Part shown: piece by piece, positions 11,734 through 18,530 of the stretch
Numbering within the stretch: position 1 is the first letter of the stretch
How the letters are laid out: each line of letters opens with the position of its first letter
Assembly (NCBI GenBank): GCA_965214095.1
Contig: OZ243938.1
Coordinates: 3,264,001 to 3,328,000, forward strand
Reading direction: 5' to 3'
DNA length: 64,000 nt
Source: Candidatus Poribacteria bacterium
GTDB taxonomy: Bacteria > Poribacteria > WGA-4E > WGA-3G
Made by a program: the position numbers and the translations under genes
The notes under the pieces: model-generated
Told to the model about the DNA's origin: nothing
What the model saw: only the letters and a program-made list of their open reading frames with translations
Database searches by the model: none

Positions 11734-11783
11734 CTATAGGTTGATATATCAAAAACCCTCATATATTAGACAGGATGTATCTG

Positions 11784-14700
11784 ATGAACAACGATGATGT
11801 AACCCTTATTCAACGCATTCTCGCTGATGATGAAGCTGCTTTTGCAGAGCTTGTGAAGAAATATCAGAAAGCGGTGCATACTCTTGCTTGGCGAAAGATT
11901 GACGATTTTCACATTGCAGAGGACATCACACAAGATGCCTTCCTGAAAGTGTATCAGAGACTCCATACACTAAAAGATCCGAAGCAGTTCTCTGGATGGC
12001 TCTATGTGATTACTTCAAACTTATGTGCCACATGGCTTCGCAAAAAACGGTTACGGACACAACCTATAGAGGACGAAGAGGCAGTTATGACTCCAAGAGA
12101 TGTATATTCTCAGCATGTCGTAGAAGAACGGAACCAGGCGGCTGCTGAAACACAACGTGAAGTGGTCAAGAAACTGCTGGCGAGGTTAAAAGAGAGTGAA
12201 CGGACAGTGATGTCACTTTATTATCTTGGAGAGATGAGGGTTGAAGAGATAAGCAGATTTCTGGGGGTATCCACAAGCACAATCAAAAGCCGTCTTAGAC
12301 GTGCACGGAACCGTTTACAGAAGGAGGAAACGATGATTAGAGAAGCCCTTGAACATTTCAAACTTTCACCGAACTTCACCGAAAATATCATGCAAGAAAT
12401 ATCACATCTCAAACCTACACCTTCCACCAGCAAACCCCTCGTACCGTGGACAGTTGCTGCTTCAAGTGCAATCCTAATAGTGTTGATGCTTGGCATAGGC
12501 AGTCAGAATTTAGTTCGTTTTCAGAAACCTTATTCATTAGATGCACAAGCAGAGATGACGGTTGAACTTGTTGACACACCAATTGTGCTAAATATAGACG
12601 CGAAGCCAGATGTTAGAAATCAATTGGGCAGTATAAATCCTGCTGGTGATAGTGAAAATGAAGGTCAGAAACCAGATGAAGTCCTGTTAGCTGCCGCAGA
12701 AACCGAGGATGAGAACAAGGTATCCGTTCCCAAACAGCGGTGGATTCAGTCTGAACCTGTCAAAGGAAGTGATGTAGATGCTTTATCTGTAACATCTAAT
12801 GGTGAACTATACTCAGTTGCTAACAGGCATATTTACAAAATTGAATCCGATGGGGAAGCGTGGCAACAGATCGCAAATATTGATACACTGGATGTTAAGT
12901 ATGGGAGTTCTGCTTTTATCAAAGAGTGGGACAATATGCTCTATCTGTTATTAGATTCTACAATACTTACTTCAAAAGATGACGGTAAGACATGGGAGTT
13001 AGTTAACACACTGCTAACAGATTCTACATTTGCTCTTGATTTCATACTAACTAACCAAGCTTTTTATATCATTTTTTCTAATTACACTGCTTTTCGGTCT
13101 GAAGATAAGGGTGTAACATGGGAGGCAATGAACGTCGATTTTCCGCAGAACCCCAACTCTATAGTAGTGATTCAAGACACAATGTTTACTGGTACATTTA
13201 ATGGACTCTACCGATTAAAGGAAGACAACTGGGTACCAATGAAACTCCCTGGATCTGTTAGTGCAATTCTCTCAGTTGCTGGATCTGATGGGAAGATTTA
13301 TGTTGCGGCAGAGTTTAGCAAGGACGTGACTAGTTCTCAAAAAGTTCGTCAGGGGTTGGCACGGGGCTGGTGGATATTTCGCTCAACAGATCTCGGTGAT
13401 TCATGGGACGATATAACGCCGAAAAACGCATGGCCTGTAATGGGGTTGCCACCTAAAATCAAACTCGTTGCTGTCGGTGAAACACTCTTAGCAATGGAAC
13501 AGGGAATGGTTCGATCGACCGATGCAGGAAACACATGGCAGCCAAGACAACTACCTGGCACCTCACCTTCAATGGATAATAGACTCAGTTATGTTGCTAC
13601 GGTGAACGACAGATCCATTTATGTTGGCAGCAAAAAGGACGGCCTTTACCGCTCCACTGATGGCGGTATATCCTGGGACCCAGTAAATATTAATGGACGA
13701 AACTGGAAAATAATAACAAATTTAATTACGGTTGAAGGAAACAATAAAACACCAAATATGCCGTCCATGTTGTATGCAGAATTCGCAGGAGATATTGTAA
13801 AAACTACTGACAAGGGCAAATCTTGGAGAAGAATCCGGATGGGAATACCTATGACAGCTCCTGTTAGAGAAGTTCCGCCGTATTTTAGTCGGCTAGGTGA
13901 ATTCGGTGGTACCCTCTATGCCAAAACAGATGGTTGGCGCAGCTTTAGAAGCGAATATAAAACAGGTTTATATCGCATCTCTGAAGATGGAAACTCAGTC
14001 ATGTCTATACAAGGCATGCCTACCTTTAACTCAAGCATGTTGAAACATCTATGGAAGAACGGAAGAAGGGGATCTTTAGATGTGTCAGATAAGTCATTCA
14101 TTGAACAGTTGAATGAGAATTTCGTTGGGGCAGACCAGTTCTTTAAAACGTTGGCACAGGAGAAAACCCTAACGCAAAACGAACTTGATCAGGAACAACT
14201 ATATGAGGATCAGGAACGACTCATACTGGAAGGTTTATTAGACGGTGCTTTTGCTGTCAGCGGCGACACGTTTTACTTTGAATACAACTTTAAACTCTTC
14301 CGATGGAAGTCAGGTGAAACAACGTGGTACGACACGGGTGTACAGGAGACGGGTGAACTCCGTTATTTTGAAGCTGCAAAGGCATTTGAAAGAGAGGGAC
14401 TCTCAAATGAAAAGATTGGCGAAATTATTAGGGCTTGGCAATTCGGGTTCAAACTTGCCGTTTCAGGTAACACTGTCTATGTCGGCAAACGGGATGGCAC
14501 CCTCTTACAATCATTTGATGCAGGAACTAATTGGGTTGATCTCACGCCTGTACTACCATTCCCAGTAAAAGCATTCAAAGATATCGTGATTGTTAATGAT
14601 ACAGTGTATGTAGCAACAGATGCAGGTGTCACCACATCAGATCGTGGAAATAATTGGGGTGTTATTACCGATTCAGAAGGCACAAATCTCAATATGGACA

Positions 14701-14891
14701 TACTGACTGCTGATGGCACAAAACTCTATGGCGTTACCAAAGATACTGGCATTTATCGTTTGGAAAATGATGCATGGTATCAGATTGTTTCAGAGATTCC
14801 AGATAACATAAATTCTCTCGCTGTTGATGGGAATACCTTATTCGTGGGAACACAAGACCGCGGTATGCTTCATTTCACTCTTGAAGAATAA
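11784..14891 (+). CDS. ECF sigma-TM-Asp-box beta-propeller (array copy 4)
   Basis: Same architecture. Start set at MNNDD (11784) by alignment with copy 3; the ORF track opens at 11775. Confidence 0.92.
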   Translation: MNNDDVTLIQRILADDEAAFAELVKKYQKAVHTLAWRKIDDFHIAEDITQDAFLKVYQRLHTLKDPKQFSGWLYVITSNLCATWLRKKRLRTQPIEDEEAVMTPRDVYSQHVVEERNQAAAETQREVVKKLLARLKESERTVMSLYYLGEMRVEEISRFLGVSTSTIKSRLRRARNRLQKEETMIREALEHFKLSPNFTENIMQEISHLKPTPSTSKPLVPWTVAASSAILIVLMLGIGSQNLVRFQKPYSLDAQAEMTVELVDTPIVLNIDAKPDVRNQLGSINPAGDSENEGQKPDEVLLAAAETEDENKVSVPKQRWIQSEPVKGSDVDALSVTSNGELYSVANRHIYKIESDGEAWQQIANIDTLDVKYGSSAFIKEWDNMLYLLLDSTILTSKDDGKTWELVNTLLTDSTFALDFILTNQAFYIIFSNYTAFRSEDKGVTWEAMNVDFPQNPNSIVVIQDTMFTGTFNGLYRLKEDNWVPMKLPGSVSAILSVAGSDGKIYVAAEFSKDVTSSQKVRQGLARGWWIFRSTDLGDSWDDITPKNAWPVMGLPPKIKLVAVGETLLAMEQGMVRSTDAGNTWQPRQLPGTSPSMDNRLSYVATVNDRSIYVGSKKDGLYRSTDGGISWDPVNINGRNWKIITNLITVEGNNKTPNMPSMLYAEFAGDIVKTTDKGKSWRRIRMGIPMTAPVREVPPYFSRLGEFGGTLYAKTDGWRSFRSEYKTGLYRISEDGNSVMSIQGMPTFNSSMLKHLWKNGRRGSLDVSDKSFIEQLNENFVGADQFFKTLAQEKTLTQNELDQEQLYEDQERLILEGLLDGAFAVSGDTFYFEYNFKLFRWKSGETTWYDTGVQETGELRYFEAAKAFEREGLSNEKIGEIIRAWQFGFKLAVSGNTVYVGKRDGTLLQSFDAGTNWVDLTPVLPFPVKAFKDIVIVNDTVYVATDAGVTTSDRGNNWGVITDSEGTNLNMDILTADGTKLYGVTKDTGIYRLENDAWYQIVSEIPDNINSLAVDGNTLFVGTQDRGMLHFTLEE

Positions 14892-14990
14892 TATACCATA
14901 AGTGAGCGGTACCGAATGCCTCTACTCCATCCAATTATTTTAAATATCCTCACTAAACGTCGTATCCTCTGACAACATAGAACTTATATG

Positions 14991-15048
14991 AATATGAAAA
15001 GAGAGGATAATGGTATAATATCTGAACATTATACTCTCTTTTCATATT
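14991..15048 (+). promoter_or_regulatory. Long inverted repeat enclosing an extended -10 (TGGTATAAT)
   Basis: aatatgaaaagagaggataatg...cattatactctcttttcatatt; homologous to 2096-2137. Confidence 0.5.
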
Positions 15049-15059
15049 CTTTAAAAACT

Positions 15060-15087
15060 TGAGACTTTTTCTCCGCAAGTCGCGTCA
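15060..15087 (+). promoter_or_regulatory. Putative ECF promoter, class A (TGAGAC-N18-GTCA)
   Basis: Matches the copy-1 promoter. Confidence 0.65.
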
Positions 15088-15133
15088 CTATACGTCAATG
15101 TGAACGATTAAGTCCCTTTGTTAGAGGTATCTA

Positions 15134-15440
15134 GTCATAGTACCCAAACCTAAAGGGTTGGGCTTGTGCTTCATAGACGTTGCGTTTCACCAAAAGGATC
15201 ATCCGTCTTATTTCGTCTCCACAGTGGGTTCTAAGCAACCTCACTTGCTCTAAAAGAGCAACTTATTATTTGAGAGTGTGTTTTTCGGACTGGGTTTTTT
15301 ACCTCCCATGTCCCTACCACTCAATTGTTATGTGTCTATGGTAGTGAGAGCGTATATGTTTTTCAGTTTTATGCTCCGCAACATATAGCACCAAAGACTG
15401 CGGACAACCTCACACACGACTGCGTGTGATTGAACTTTCC
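15134..15440 (-). ncRNA. Putative stand-alone structured RNA ending in a TnpB omegaRNA/reRNA-like scaffold
   Basis: Minus-strand 3' part CTGTGGAGAC..TAAGAC..GTCTATGAAGCACAAGCCCAACCCTTTAGGTTTGGGTACTATGAC resembles IS605/tnpB right ends. Several hairpins lie upstream, and there is a dedicated promoter. Confidence 0.55.
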
Positions 15441-15446
15441 GAATAT

Positions 15447-15475
15447 ATTTTAGCAAGTTTGACATTTATTGTCAA
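15447..15475 (-). promoter_or_regulatory. sigma70 promoter inside the element, firing leftwards
   Basis: TTGACA-N17-TAAAAT on the minus strand. Confidence 0.7.
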
Positions 15476-15539
15476 GAAAAACATAGGAGCGGGCAGGAGA
15501 CCCAAACCTAAAGGATTGGGTCTCCTGCCCGAAGATTAG

Positions 15540-18530
15540 ATGAAAAATGCTGATGTTGAACTCATCCAACGTGTCCTTGATGGCGATGATACTGCGTTCT
15601 CAGAGCTTGTGAGAAATTATAAGAAGTCAGTCCATGCGCTTGCATGGCGAAAAGTTCAAGACTTCCACATCGCAGAGGACATCACACAGGAAACATTTCT
15701 GAAGGCATATCAGAAGTTGTCAACTTTGAATGAATCACAGTCATTTGCAAGTTGGCTCTATGTGATAGCGGCGAATGAATGTAAGGCATGGCTTCGTCGG
15801 AAACGTATACGGACACAGTCTTTGGAAGATATCAATGATGCAGAGTTGGAACAAGCGACCTATTCCAACTATGTCATTAATGAAAAAGAACGGACATCAG
15901 TAGAAGCGCAGCGCGAAGTTGTCAAGAAGTTGCTTGCGAAGCTGCAGGAGAGTGACCGTACGGTCATAACGCTCTATTACCTCGGGGGAATGACGTATGA
16001 AGAAATCAGCAGATTCTTAGGTGTATCGGTCAGTGCGATCAAGAACCGCCTCTACCGAGCGCGCCAGTTTCTAAAAAAGGAGGAACCCATGATAAGAGAA
16101 GTTTTAGAGAATTACCAAATCACACCCAATTTCACTGAGAACATCATGCAAGAAATATCACGTCTCAAACCTACACCTTCCACCAGCAAACCGCTTGTGC
16201 CGTGGGCAATTGCTGCTACAAGTACAATCTTAATTATGTTGATGCTTGGCATAGGCAGCCAACAATTAGTGCGTTTTCAGCAACCTTTTACATTAGATGC
16301 GCAAGCAGATATGACGGTTGAACTTGTTGACACACCAATTGTGCTGAATCTGGATTCTGTGCCAGATGTTAGAAATAGACTGGGCAGTATAAATCCTGCT
16401 GGTGATAGTGAAAATGAAGGTCAGAAACCAGATGAAGTCCTGTTAGCTGCCGCAGAAACCGAGGATGAGGACAAGGTATCCACACCTAAACAGCAGTGGA
16501 TTCAGTCTGAACCTATTAAAGGTAGTCAAGTATATAGTCTAAAAGGCACCACGCAAGGTGATCTGTATGTTCTTGTGAGTAATAGAGGAACTCCAAACAT
16601 CCTCAAGTTAACATCGGATGGAAATACTTGGCAATCTATAGATGGTTACCCGTCAGGTACAGTTTGGGGATTTAACGCAGCTATGGTAGAGTGGAATAAT
16701 ACTTTTTACATTATACCATCTAACGAGCTCTTTGCATCAGAAGATGAAGGAAAGACTTGGAATTCACTTTACACGTGGTCTAAAGACCACAATGTGATTG
16801 ATCTTCTACCCATGGATAATGCATTCTACGCTGCATTTCAAGAAGGTATTTATAAGTCTGATGATTTAGGAAAGACGTGGAAAGCAATACAAGATGAGCA
16901 AATCAAGTATATCGAATCTCTAGTAAGAATCCAAAACACATTGTTTGTTGAAACATCCACCAAACTTTACCGATTGGATGACGATGGTTTGAACTCATTG
17001 GAATTTCCAGTACCTGTTAGGAGCATTATTTCAGTTGCAGGAACTGATGGAAAGCTTTATGTTGAAGTAACGTCTAATTCAGATCGTAGTTGGTGGATAT
17101 TCCGTTCAACTGATCTTGGGGATTCGTGGATAGATATAACACCGACAAACGCTTGGTCTATAGAAGGACAACCACCTTATTGCAAATTGATTGCATCTGA
17201 AGAAACCCTGTTGGTAATGGAACAGGGAATGGTTCGCTCAACTGATGGAGGGAATACATGGCTGCCTCCACAGTTACCAGGAACCACTCCTTCAATGAGT
17301 AGTTCATATAATGCAGTTGCTGTAAATCAAGACACCTTTTATGTTGGAAGTAGTGATGGCTTACATCATTCAACTAATAAGGGAAAATCGTGGGATTTAG
17401 TGAGAGTCGCTCCAGATATGAGAAGACGTGTAATGTTTAATCTAATCGCAACCAAAAATAGTGTCGATAGTCTAAACTTGATGCCGACACTCTATGGGAT
17501 AGTTGAAGTCGGAGAGATAACAAAAACTAATGATGATGGCAAGTCATGGGAGACTGTTCGTGTTGATACACCTATGTCAACATCAAACAGAGGAAACGTA
17601 CCAACAATAACCCAGATTGTTAAATCAGGCGATGATGTCTACGTTAAAGGAGGATCTCTTGGTGAGGGAAAGGTAGGTCATTACATAGTATCTGACAACG
17701 GGAACACTTTAGTCCCAATTCAGGACATGCCAACTTTCAGTTCAACTGAATTAAGGATGCGTCTATTTACTTCTAAAGATCTTACGATAGGAGAGTTGCA
17801 AGAAGATTTCTCTGGTGCAAAAAATTTCTTCCAACAGATGCTTAATTCAGCACCTCAACAACTAATTAAGCTTGAAGAACTTGGACTTCGTGGCCCTTTT
17901 ACTGTCAGTGGTGACACATTCTATACGGAATACAACCTTAAACTCTTTAGATGGAATCCTGGAGATACAGAATGGTATGACACTGGTCAAGAAGACATTG
18001 GTGACTTTCCCTTGGATGAATTGTTCATAAGCACATTTAAGTCACACTTCATTGTTCCCAAACTTGCAGCTTATGACAACACAGTTTACTACGGAAAGCG
18101 GAATGGACAATTGGTAGTATCGTTTGATAAAGGTAATAATTGGGTTGATCTCACTCCAGGTCTACCCTATAAGGTAAAAACATATAATAGTATCGTGTTT
18201 GTGGGTTCCACAGTATATGTGGCAACAAATGCAGGTATCATTACATCAGATGATGGGAGAACGTGGAAAACTGTCACTGATTCTGGTAGATCTAATATCA
18301 TCATGGCGCATTTAGCTGTGGACGGTACAACACTCTATGGCATTACTAACACAACGAGTATCTACCGTTTAAATAGTGAAAGTGGTGCTTGGGAACAGGT
18401 TGTCACTAAGATACCAGAAATTAAAAATCTCAAAATAAGGGATTTCGTTACATCTTTCGCGGTTGCTGGAAGGACGTTGTATGTAAGTACTGAAGTAAAC
18501 GGAATGTTCCATTTTAACCTTGATGAATAA
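15540..18530 (+). CDS. ECF sigma-TM-Asp-box beta-propeller (array copy 5), separated from its RBS by the insertion
   Basis: Sigma domain very similar to copy 1; frame intact. Confidence 0.92.
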   Translation: MKNADVELIQRVLDGDDTAFSELVRNYKKSVHALAWRKVQDFHIAEDITQETFLKAYQKLSTLNESQSFASWLYVIAANECKAWLRRKRIRTQSLEDINDAELEQATYSNYVINEKERTSVEAQREVVKKLLAKLQESDRTVITLYYLGGMTYEEISRFLGVSVSAIKNRLYRARQFLKKEEPMIREVLENYQITPNFTENIMQEISRLKPTPSTSKPLVPWAIAATSTILIMLMLGIGSQQLVRFQQPFTLDAQADMTVELVDTPIVLNLDSVPDVRNRLGSINPAGDSENEGQKPDEVLLAAAETEDEDKVSTPKQQWIQSEPIKGSQVYSLKGTTQGDLYVLVSNRGTPNILKLTSDGNTWQSIDGYPSGTVWGFNAAMVEWNNTFYIIPSNELFASEDEGKTWNSLYTWSKDHNVIDLLPMDNAFYAAFQEGIYKSDDLGKTWKAIQDEQIKYIESLVRIQNTLFVETSTKLYRLDDDGLNSLEFPVPVRSIISVAGTDGKLYVEVTSNSDRSWWIFRSTDLGDSWIDITPTNAWSIEGQPPYCKLIASEETLLVMEQGMVRSTDGGNTWLPPQLPGTTPSMSSSYNAVAVNQDTFYVGSSDGLHHSTNKGKSWDLVRVAPDMRRRVMFNLIATKNSVDSLNLMPTLYGIVEVGEITKTNDDGKSWETVRVDTPMSTSNRGNVPTITQIVKSGDDVYVKGGSLGEGKVGHYIVSDNGNTLVPIQDMPTFSSTELRMRLFTSKDLTIGELQEDFSGAKNFFQQMLNSAPQQLIKLEELGLRGPFTVSGDTFYTEYNLKLFRWNPGDTEWYDTGQEDIGDFPLDELFISTFKSHFIVPKLAAYDNTVYYGKRNGQLVVSFDKGNNWVDLTPGLPYKVKTYNSIVFVGSTVYVATNAGIITSDDGRTWKTVTDSGRSNIIMAHLAVDGTTLYGITNTTSIYRLNSESGAWEQVVTKIPEIKNLKIRDFVTSFAVAGRTLYVSTEVNGMFHFNLDE

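Follow-up and report, generated by a model that had tools for sequence, protein, structure and literature searches.

The window analysed here, a 64,000-nt stretch of genomic DNA, contains a 406-bp protein-free IS200/IS605 mini-element (PATE/MITE) on the minus strand at positions 15134–15539, in Candidatus Poribacteria, a sponge symbiont. We read this mini-element as a non-autonomous derivative of a tnpB-only IS200/IS605 insertion sequence (IS), equipped with the promoter of the family and an omegaRNA scaffold and predicted to be used in trans by TnpB and TnpA; we put the probability of this reading at roughly 0.75. The kind of element is already known, because omegaRNA-encoding PATEs are described by Meers et al. 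(2023), and the present one is another published-type example. The features of the element and of its insertion site are as follows.

15134–15539, minus strand: whole mini-element, left end at 15539 and right end at 15134.
15540–15544, minus strand: target or TAM motif TTCAT, abutting the left end; it is the ATGAA start codon of the ECF-sigma fusion gene.
15540–18530, plus strand: interrupted host gene; its ORF of 996 aa is intact and joins an ECF sigma factor to a propeller of the BNR/sortilin type.
15491–15530, minus strand: left-end hairpin, GGGCA / 5-mer / CCCAAnC – CTTTAG loop – GnTTGGG / 5-mer / TGCCC.
15475–15470 (−35) and 15452–15447 (−10), minus strand: sigma-70-type promoter TTGACA-N17-TAAAAT, 11 of 12 matches plus TG before the −10.
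15325–15440, minus strand: lineage-specific leader of about 116 nt with two predicted hairpins.
15134–15324, minus strand: omegaRNA scaffold of about 191 nt, assigned from covariation and from homology to the right ends of tnpB IS.
15322–15318/15278–15274, minus strand: helix H1, GAGTG/CACTC.
15313–15307/15292–15287, minus strand: helix H2, GGAC-A-TGGG/CCCAGTCC.
15261–15254/15249–15245, minus strand: helix H3, TTGCTC/GAGCAA.
15242–15237/15230–15226, minus strand: helix H4, from the alignment of mini-elements.
15218–15214/15179–15175, minus strand: helix H5, from the same alignment.
15162–15155/15150–15143, minus strand: helix H7, the right-end hairpin, from the same alignment.
15114–15133, minus strand: flank and putative guide, holding the displaced Shine-Dalgarno sequence AGAGG (15123–15127, plus strand).

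The mini-element lies in the 648-bp gap between two paralogous genes (11775–14891 and 15540–18530), both encoding ECF-sigma/BNR-propeller fusions. A comparison of positions 15080–15500 with the genome of origin (G000; 5.25 Mb, 4 contigs) returned 15 matches, four of them to the whole element at 99–100% identity and the others partial, to its ends. The four full copies, located at C1:3279134 (the window copy), C1:959174, C1:781434 and C1:5082566, are 98–100% identical, and their flanks are mutually unrelated. Three of the four are equal in length, the only differences among them being position 15422 and two 5-mers that belong to the left-end hairpin, while the remaining copy, compared at the level of overall identity, is 98% identical and contains at least one indel of 1 nt. 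The boundaries are fixed by the uninterrupted leader of a paralogue and by another occupant with identical junctions in the sister species G032. A first-pass annotation of this DNA had placed the element at 15110–15475; these bounds are partly off, since they include 24 nt of flank and omit the outermost 64 nt of the left end, where its hairpin lies.

As that annotation had proposed, the element is free of protein genes. Searches by tblastn with five TnpB types and TnpA detected no TnpA or TnpB remnant inside it (best E 0.03), and hence no decayed tnpB ORF of the kind envisaged as a possible origin of the 5' part; its two longest ORFs reach 54 and 45 aa. The 45-aa sense ORF, which is partly in frame in the related genome G006, was considered as a leader small protein and rejected because it begins upstream of the predicted transcription start and because three of four substitutions in the part of the frame common to the window copy and G006 are nonsynonymous. 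Both ends carry subterminal imperfect hairpins (15491–15530 and 15143–15162) with a CTTTAG loop and covarying stems, and terminal inverted repeats are lacking; insertion has occurred 3' of a short motif, in a single orientation and without target duplication. At the left end, positions 15460–15547 are 79.5% identical to the left end of the full-length element IS_L6 over 88 nt. Since the ends are homologous and no TnpA or TnpB remnant was found, we classify the element as a PATE/MITE with IS_L6-type ends.

The right end provides the link to tnpB. Seven partial matches in G000 cover only the first ~90–150 nt (15134–15240), at 74–83% identity, and five of these seven lie directly downstream of a 341–382-aa ORF beginning MR(K)TYKYK. 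The segment 15134–15240 shares 74–83% identity with the sequence just downstream of five G000 tnpB ORFs. This identifies it as a tnpB-type IS200/IS605 right end in minus-strand orientation, in agreement with the initial description. Identity reaches 78% over the last 111 nt for IS_L6 and 82% over 92 nt for three other IS. Helices H4–H7, i.e., the 3' ~110 nt, align to the right ends of full-length IS, and a covariance model of 210 nt aligned to IS_L6-type elements placed counterparts of H1 and H2 in the last tnpB codons; no counterpart of H3 was found in this covariance-model alignment. Since the H1 and H2 counterparts lie inside the 3' end of tnpB, the ~191 nt from 15324 to 15134 are the equivalent of an entire omegaRNA, which ends where the transposon ends and has its homologue in the 3' end and right end of tnpB elements. 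The scaffold has diverged since its release from coding constraint.

The secondary structure of the scaffold is conserved through compensatory changes. For 19 distinct mini-element sequences of 9 genomes, the final 210 nt were aligned and a six-helix structure was scored: 95.9% of 641 cells were paired, and 16 of 34 pairs had changed on both sides. None of 500 shuffles reached any of the five measures, and sliding the 3' partners by 1–3 columns left 33–44% of the cells paired. The covariation analysis called for by the first-pass annotation is thus positive, and the four hairpins that it listed are all present in the window sequence. H2 and H3 are kept by compensatory changes, and CACACG/CGTGTG shows one such change in its sole diverged homologue. 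CTACCA/TGGTAG is not kept in G006; its TGGTAG arm overlaps the better-supported H1 pairing GAGTG/CACTC, and CTACCA pairs with an upstream TGGTG. The fold energy of the whole RNA is unremarkable (z = −1.47). The Rfam search that had likewise been suggested returned no relevant match in gathering or E-value mode: no family reached the gathering threshold in 14850–15600, and chance-level microRNA and sRNA matches fell outside the scaffold only. On the plus strand, H3 resembles a terminator, 15245–15261 being followed by CTTATTATTT; over 15245–15270, H3 and the conserved A-rich tract, read antisense, give a terminator-like hairpin with a T-run after it, and this hairpin faces transcripts coming from the host gene's own promoter.

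Related sequences are widespread in the genus. The DNA of the mini-element found matches in 31 of 61 relatives, and the covariance model of the scaffold in 31 of 40 genus genomes. The best 37 covariance-model matches (at least 138 bits, 14 genomes) are separated from the rest, which score at most 114 bits and include full-length IS. Upstream inspection of 34 of these 37, with three at contig ends left out, revealed no tnpB frame running into the scaffold, and a left end was located ~380–400 nt upstream in 12 sequences bearing TTCGGGCA as well as in five of six sequences of another set. A second, larger mini-element lineage (G000 C1:3131649, C1:1048368 and C1:4577970, and many loci in relatives) has the same scaffold architecture, a different left end with a target of about TTTAAC, and a different, well-conserved leader; it numbers four copies in G003 and five identical copies in G022.

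Transcription of the scaffold is predicted from the left end. The near-consensus minus-strand promoter reported in the first-pass annotation was recovered as the sole match of this strength in a sigma-70-type scan of 14850–15650. In IS_L6, TTGACA-N17-TATACT occupies the equivalent position of the left end; the mini-element promoter is thus a positional homologue of the promoter that serves tnpB in the full-length IS. No outward sigma-70-type site toward the sigma gene was detected on the plus strand of 14850–15650, ECF-type promoters being outside the scan.

Expression was assessed in public RNA libraries (sponge metagenome/metatranscriptome, two studies, assembled contigs), in which 23–31% of the sampled words of 14900–15900 occur. 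Each of four RNA runs contained one contig on the mini-element, with lengths of 395 nt (15131–15502), 347 nt (15131–15454, in two runs) and 313 nt (15131–15419). The contigs extend 23–24 letters beyond 15131, and these letters equal the flank of the C1:959174 copy and not that of the window copy, which means that each contig reaches some 26–27 nt past the right-end boundary. They come without strand, true ends or level and may include DNA carry-over, and are hence supportive of expression rather than decisive. The four runs contained no contig on 14900–15103 or 15580–15900 and are uninformative on the expression of the neighbouring genes.

The left-end hairpin, whose stem covaries in relatives with retention of the CTTTAG loop, differs among the copies. 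Its 5x5 internal loop reads GGAGA/AGGAA in two G000 copies and in relatives, is perfectly paired as GGAGA/TCTCC in the window copy (15496–15500 and 15521–15525), and is perfected in the complementary way, TTCCT/AGGAA, in the C1:959174 copy. Quasi-palindromes can be corrected by template switching, and such a correction is the likely source of the perfected hairpins. Perfect pairing in the window copy may impair excision, affect recognition by TnpA and leave the guide idle. On the plus strand of 15485–15542, a conserved AGGAG is found just upstream of the left-end hairpin, and the ATG follows 9 nt after the hairpin; that folding of the hairpin in the mRNA would bring this Shine-Dalgarno-like AGGAG near the start codon is pure speculation.

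A candidate partner nuclease is encoded in the same genome. The TnpB of IS_L6 (G000 C1:326092–327213) is an intact 373-aa ORF flanked by TTCAT like the mini-element, and contains the Pfam domains OrfB_IS605 and Cas12f1-like_TNB. Its motifs GIDFG, AAETLN and HDRDINAA, read from the ORF, are taken by us to be the RuvC catalytic motifs. The protein matches the ISDra2 TnpB structures 8bf8, 8exa and 8h1j with an E value of 3.7e-38. The mini-element scaffold differs from that of IS_L6 over the last 111 nt as given above and in its extra hairpin H3 and diverged H1 and H2; because of this difference, we only infer that the two are compatible. The lack of any compatible TnpB had been named as an objection to the omegaRNA idea, and an intact TnpB sharing the TTCAT motif speaks against that objection to the extent that this putative compatibility holds. 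In G006, which carries a 75%-identical homologue of the mini-element, the query used returned no IS_L6-type TnpB (at least 70% identity); its best match reached 57%, in an assembly that is 92% complete.

As to the transposase, G000 has four complete Y1_Tnp genes (PF01797), each adjoining a 421-aa tnpB gene. The end hairpins of these tnpA+tnpB IS605 elements read CCCAAGT-CTTTAG-ACTTGGG, with the loop and most of the stem common to the mini-element hairpins, and the four copies are likely to supply the transposase for the mini-element, as far as hairpin likeness can indicate. In one tnpA+tnpB IS605 element (A2, G000 C1:4230081 region), the loop of the left-end hairpin is itself split by an insert of ~120 nt, which has ATGAAGATTAAG and TTAATCTTCAT at its two borders.

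The position of the element defines the putative guide. The host gene encodes the Pfam domains Sigma70_r2, Sigma70_r4_2, PSII_BNR and Sortilin-Vps10, and the mini-element sits exactly between its Shine-Dalgarno sequence and its start codon. In the paralogue at 2231 the leader is uninterrupted and continues through AGAGG and 7 nt into ATGAAAAATG; compared by eye with the window guide, this leader shows 6 mismatches in 19 positions. The minus-strand flank 15133–15115 reads TAGATACCTCTAACAAAGG and is antisense to the displaced AGAGG, as had been recognised. The idea that this flank serves as a guide downstream of a tnpB-type scaffold, with the element's own promoter reading into it, is likewise supported at the level of sequence. 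Among the matches listed for the four guides of G000, the only perfect genome match of each is its own flank, and all others have at least two mismatches. No second TTCAT-flanked target of the window guide with at most two mismatches exists in the genome, and the C1:959174 guide has one TTCAT-flanked site with three mismatches. The sole TAM-plus-guide substrate is therefore the excised (empty) allele, which matches the retention model published by Meers et al. (2023). The earlier proposal of a guide directed at the excised allele thus holds in that this is the only TTCAT-plus-guide target; what it describes is the published role of TnpB and nothing special to this copy. Neither the window site nor the C1:959174 site was found as an empty allele among the five relatives searched, and the C1:781434 copy has a repetitive flank with no clear orthologue.

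Two further suggestions of the first-pass annotation concerned the sigma gene itself. An RNA acting as antisense on the ribosome-binding site loses its point because the insertion has already moved that site 406 nt from the start codon. The guide does face the sigma-gene leader, as had been stated, and this orientation is a by-product of the insertion preference of the subfamily, which inserts 3' of TTCAT, the reverse complement of an ATGAA start. The leader of the sigma gene contains a near-perfect palindrome of ~88 nt (14976–15063) that is conserved in G032 and gives chance microRNA-model matches, and similar leaders precede other sigma paralogues. Positions 1–21826 of the window form a tandem array of ~1000-aa ECF-sigma/BNR-propeller fusion genes, most large plus-strand ORFs looking paralogous (two of them Pfam-checked).

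Combining these elements, we propose that transcription starts near 15440 on the minus strand, would run through leader and scaffold, and would cross the right-end boundary at 15134, so that the first ~16–26 nt of the flank could become the guide. The RNA would then be trimmed to scaffold plus guide and loaded in trans by the IS_L6 TnpB (C1:326092–327213), which shares the TTCAT motif. Excision by a Y1 TnpA, presumably provided by the four tnpA+tnpB IS605 copies with CTTTAG loops, would restore a site reading TTCAT plus the guide target. In Meers et al. (2023; PMC10055086), PATEs are stated often to encode omegaRNAs, which are necessarily used in trans by the TnpB of another IS, and the excision of IS200/IS605 elements is stated to be scarless.

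The target motif has a direct consequence for where these elements land. TTCAT abuts three of the four G000 copies and CTCAT the fourth, and in each case the motif contains the ATG of the downstream ORF; TTCAT and CTCAT can be read as start-codon sites because they are the reverse complement of ATGA(A). A survey of 24 distinct left ends of this type (loci L006–L089) showed that 18 abut CAT, and at 14 of these 18 an ORF of 41 codons or more begins with the ATG, in many cases with a start resembling a signal peptide. Over the whole genome, the same applies to 26.9% of the 55,048 ATGA sites as background (binomial P about 1e-5, the insertion sites coming from related genomes and not being fully independent), and 3.2% of ATGA sites are at crudely called gene starts. 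The TTCAT subfamily thus lands on gene start codons and splits the Shine-Dalgarno sequence from the ATG. The TTCAT motif together with selection against intragenic insertion may be enough to account for this bias. A literature search found no paper on IS605-type insertion at start codons, and for TTCAT in connection with TnpB the only lead was ISGst5, with its IscB TAM.

Sites are shared between species, with different occupants. In the sister species G032, the locus orthologous to the window site (L062, G032:C4:742448–745639) carries an intact 1386-bp tnpB IS at junctions identical to 15134/15539; its left flank is 97% identical to the window over 191 nt, and its right flank matches at 112 of 114 positions. 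The only window-type mini-element of G032 lies at L065 (G032:C3), a site orthologous to that of the C1:959174 copy. It is identical to the latter at 395 of 406 positions, with 10 of the 11 differences in the two hairpin 5-mers, and to the window copy at 405 of 406. Compared with G000, the flanks of L065 show 18 differences in 400 positions on the left and 37 in 400 on the right, so that copies about 99.7% alike are embedded in flanks differing by 4.5–9%. This would require either re-use of the sites or a replacement or homogenisation of elements where they sit. Tandem right-end/left-end junctions, examined as possible traces of replacement, gave two pattern matches in 40 genomes and no support; the match inspected is ordinary coding DNA without end hairpins, and the second has the same 19 matched letters.

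These observations allow a more far-reaching reading, in which the TTCAT subfamily is specialised for translation starts, inserts antisense between Shine-Dalgarno sequence and ATG, has its sites re-used or turned over, and forms with TnpB a reversible, homing-like lock that keeps genes OFF. We regard this as quite unlikely; if true, genes would be locked OFF under RNA guidance, reversibly and without a scar, and the lock would spread from allele to allele like a homing element. The related idea that the antisense mini-element, with its strong promoter and a terminator-like hairpin opposing the gene's own transcripts, acts mainly at the level of the host, as a precisely reversible OFF switch with TnpB biasing the gene to OFF, is highly improbable in our view. 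It draws on the 14 of 18 CAT-type sites at ORF starts against the 26.9% background, on the terminator-like plus strand of H3, and on the scarless excision stated in PMC10055086; set against it are the alternative origin of the start-codon bias from TTCAT and selection against intragenic insertions, and the lack of empty alleles in the genomes examined.

The mini-element could also be an inert relic, i.e., a dead deletion derivative whose promoter and hairpins are kept by descent and whose RNA has no TnpB function. The altered left-end hairpin of the window copy would fit this, as would G006, which retains a mini-element homologue without a close TnpB partner and with a degenerate promoter (GTAGCA ... 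TACACT). However, compensatory evolution over 9 genomes has maintained H1–H5, parts of the scaffold that TnpA does not need, the near-identical copies in G000 and G032 stand out from their 4.5–9% diverged flanks and thereby indicate recent activity or homogenisation, and contigs of the RNA libraries cover the element. We therefore consider an inert relic unlikely and retain the reading as a mini-element whose omegaRNA is predicted to be used in trans.

The part of the element that is least well sampled is the leader. The first-pass annotation had regarded a structured 5' part of ~200 nt as unexplained and possibly a new RNA domain. The claim of a new domain is not borne out: ~75 nt of it, from 15325 to ~15245 and comprising H1–H3, belong to the scaffold, and what is left unexplained is the ~116-nt leader (15440–15325). 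Among 40 genus genomes, this leader occurs only in G000 (four copies), G032 (one) and G006 (one); when 185,579 species genomes were scanned by pattern, G006 was the only one to contain it, and a metagenome scan did not find it. The leaders of G000 and G006 are 90% identical, as compared with ~75% for the whole element, and fold into the same two predicted hairpins, with one compensatory pair, one GU-to-GC and one AU-to-GU change. The known leaders thus amount to two distinct sequences.

Could the leader be a functional RNA domain of its own, such as a stabiliser, a processing signal or part of a regulatory sRNA? Its higher identity relative to the rest of the element (90% against about 75%), the two hairpins predicted in both genomes with their compensatory pair, and the different conserved leader of similar length in other mini-element lineages of the genus would be in line with this. 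The identity is explained equally well by a recent exchange of segments between elements, the sample consists of two distinct sequences in 3 of 40 genus genomes with nothing beyond G006 in the species and metagenome scans, and the leader has no Rfam match. Sequence 5' of the scaffold is, moreover, reportedly removed when TnpB processes its own mRNA. As two sequences cannot show selection for structure, a function of the leader is left at low probability, and we think it very unlikely.

Among known systems, ISDra2 is similar in that the partner TnpB is homologous to its nuclease (8bf8/8exa/8h1j), in that its RNA is made from the 3' end of tnpB plus the right end and goes no further than the transposon boundary, and in having a five-base TAM 5' of the left end. 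The motif of ISDra2 is TTGAT, in comparison with TTCAT here. ISDra2 carries both tnpA and tnpB, whereas the RNA gene described here is separate from any protein gene. The closest resemblance in kind is to the PATEs of Geobacillus stearothermophilus (PMC10055086): they contain no protein gene, their ends are like those of tnpB IS in the same genome, and they have a right-end omegaRNA scaffold, a guide from the flank, and TnpB and TnpA presumed to act in trans. The present element differs in its host phylum, Poribacteria, in its extra ~116-nt leader, in a scaffold that has diverged from the ORF-embedded version and gained H3, and in its landing at start codons. The PATEs of Haloquadratum walsbyi (PMC3119063), described before omegaRNAs were known, are reportedly also derivatives of IS200/IS605 that lack protein genes, are short, occur in multiple copies and carry subterminal palindromes. 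TldR proteins, nuclease-dead TnpB-like repressors, reportedly share a TnpB-type scaffold and a guide matching the 5' region of a host gene (PMC10705468); there the guides are fixed, directed to intact promoters and used by a domesticated inactive protein, whereas the guide here is the flank of an insertion and the partner TnpB retains the putative RuvC catalytic motifs given above.

Taken together, the core of the mini-element interpretation is right, but it describes what elements of a known kind ordinarily do. The element offers a well-documented case, in bacteria of an uncultivated phylum of sponge symbionts, in which a guide-RNA gene has parted from the gene of its nuclease and has its own promoter. 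Its scaffold, evolving by compensatory change off coding constraint, helps to define the minimal and the tolerant parts of this omegaRNA, and the landing at start codons, a shared site with different occupants, and copies more alike than their flanks could show how such elements choose and hold their sites.
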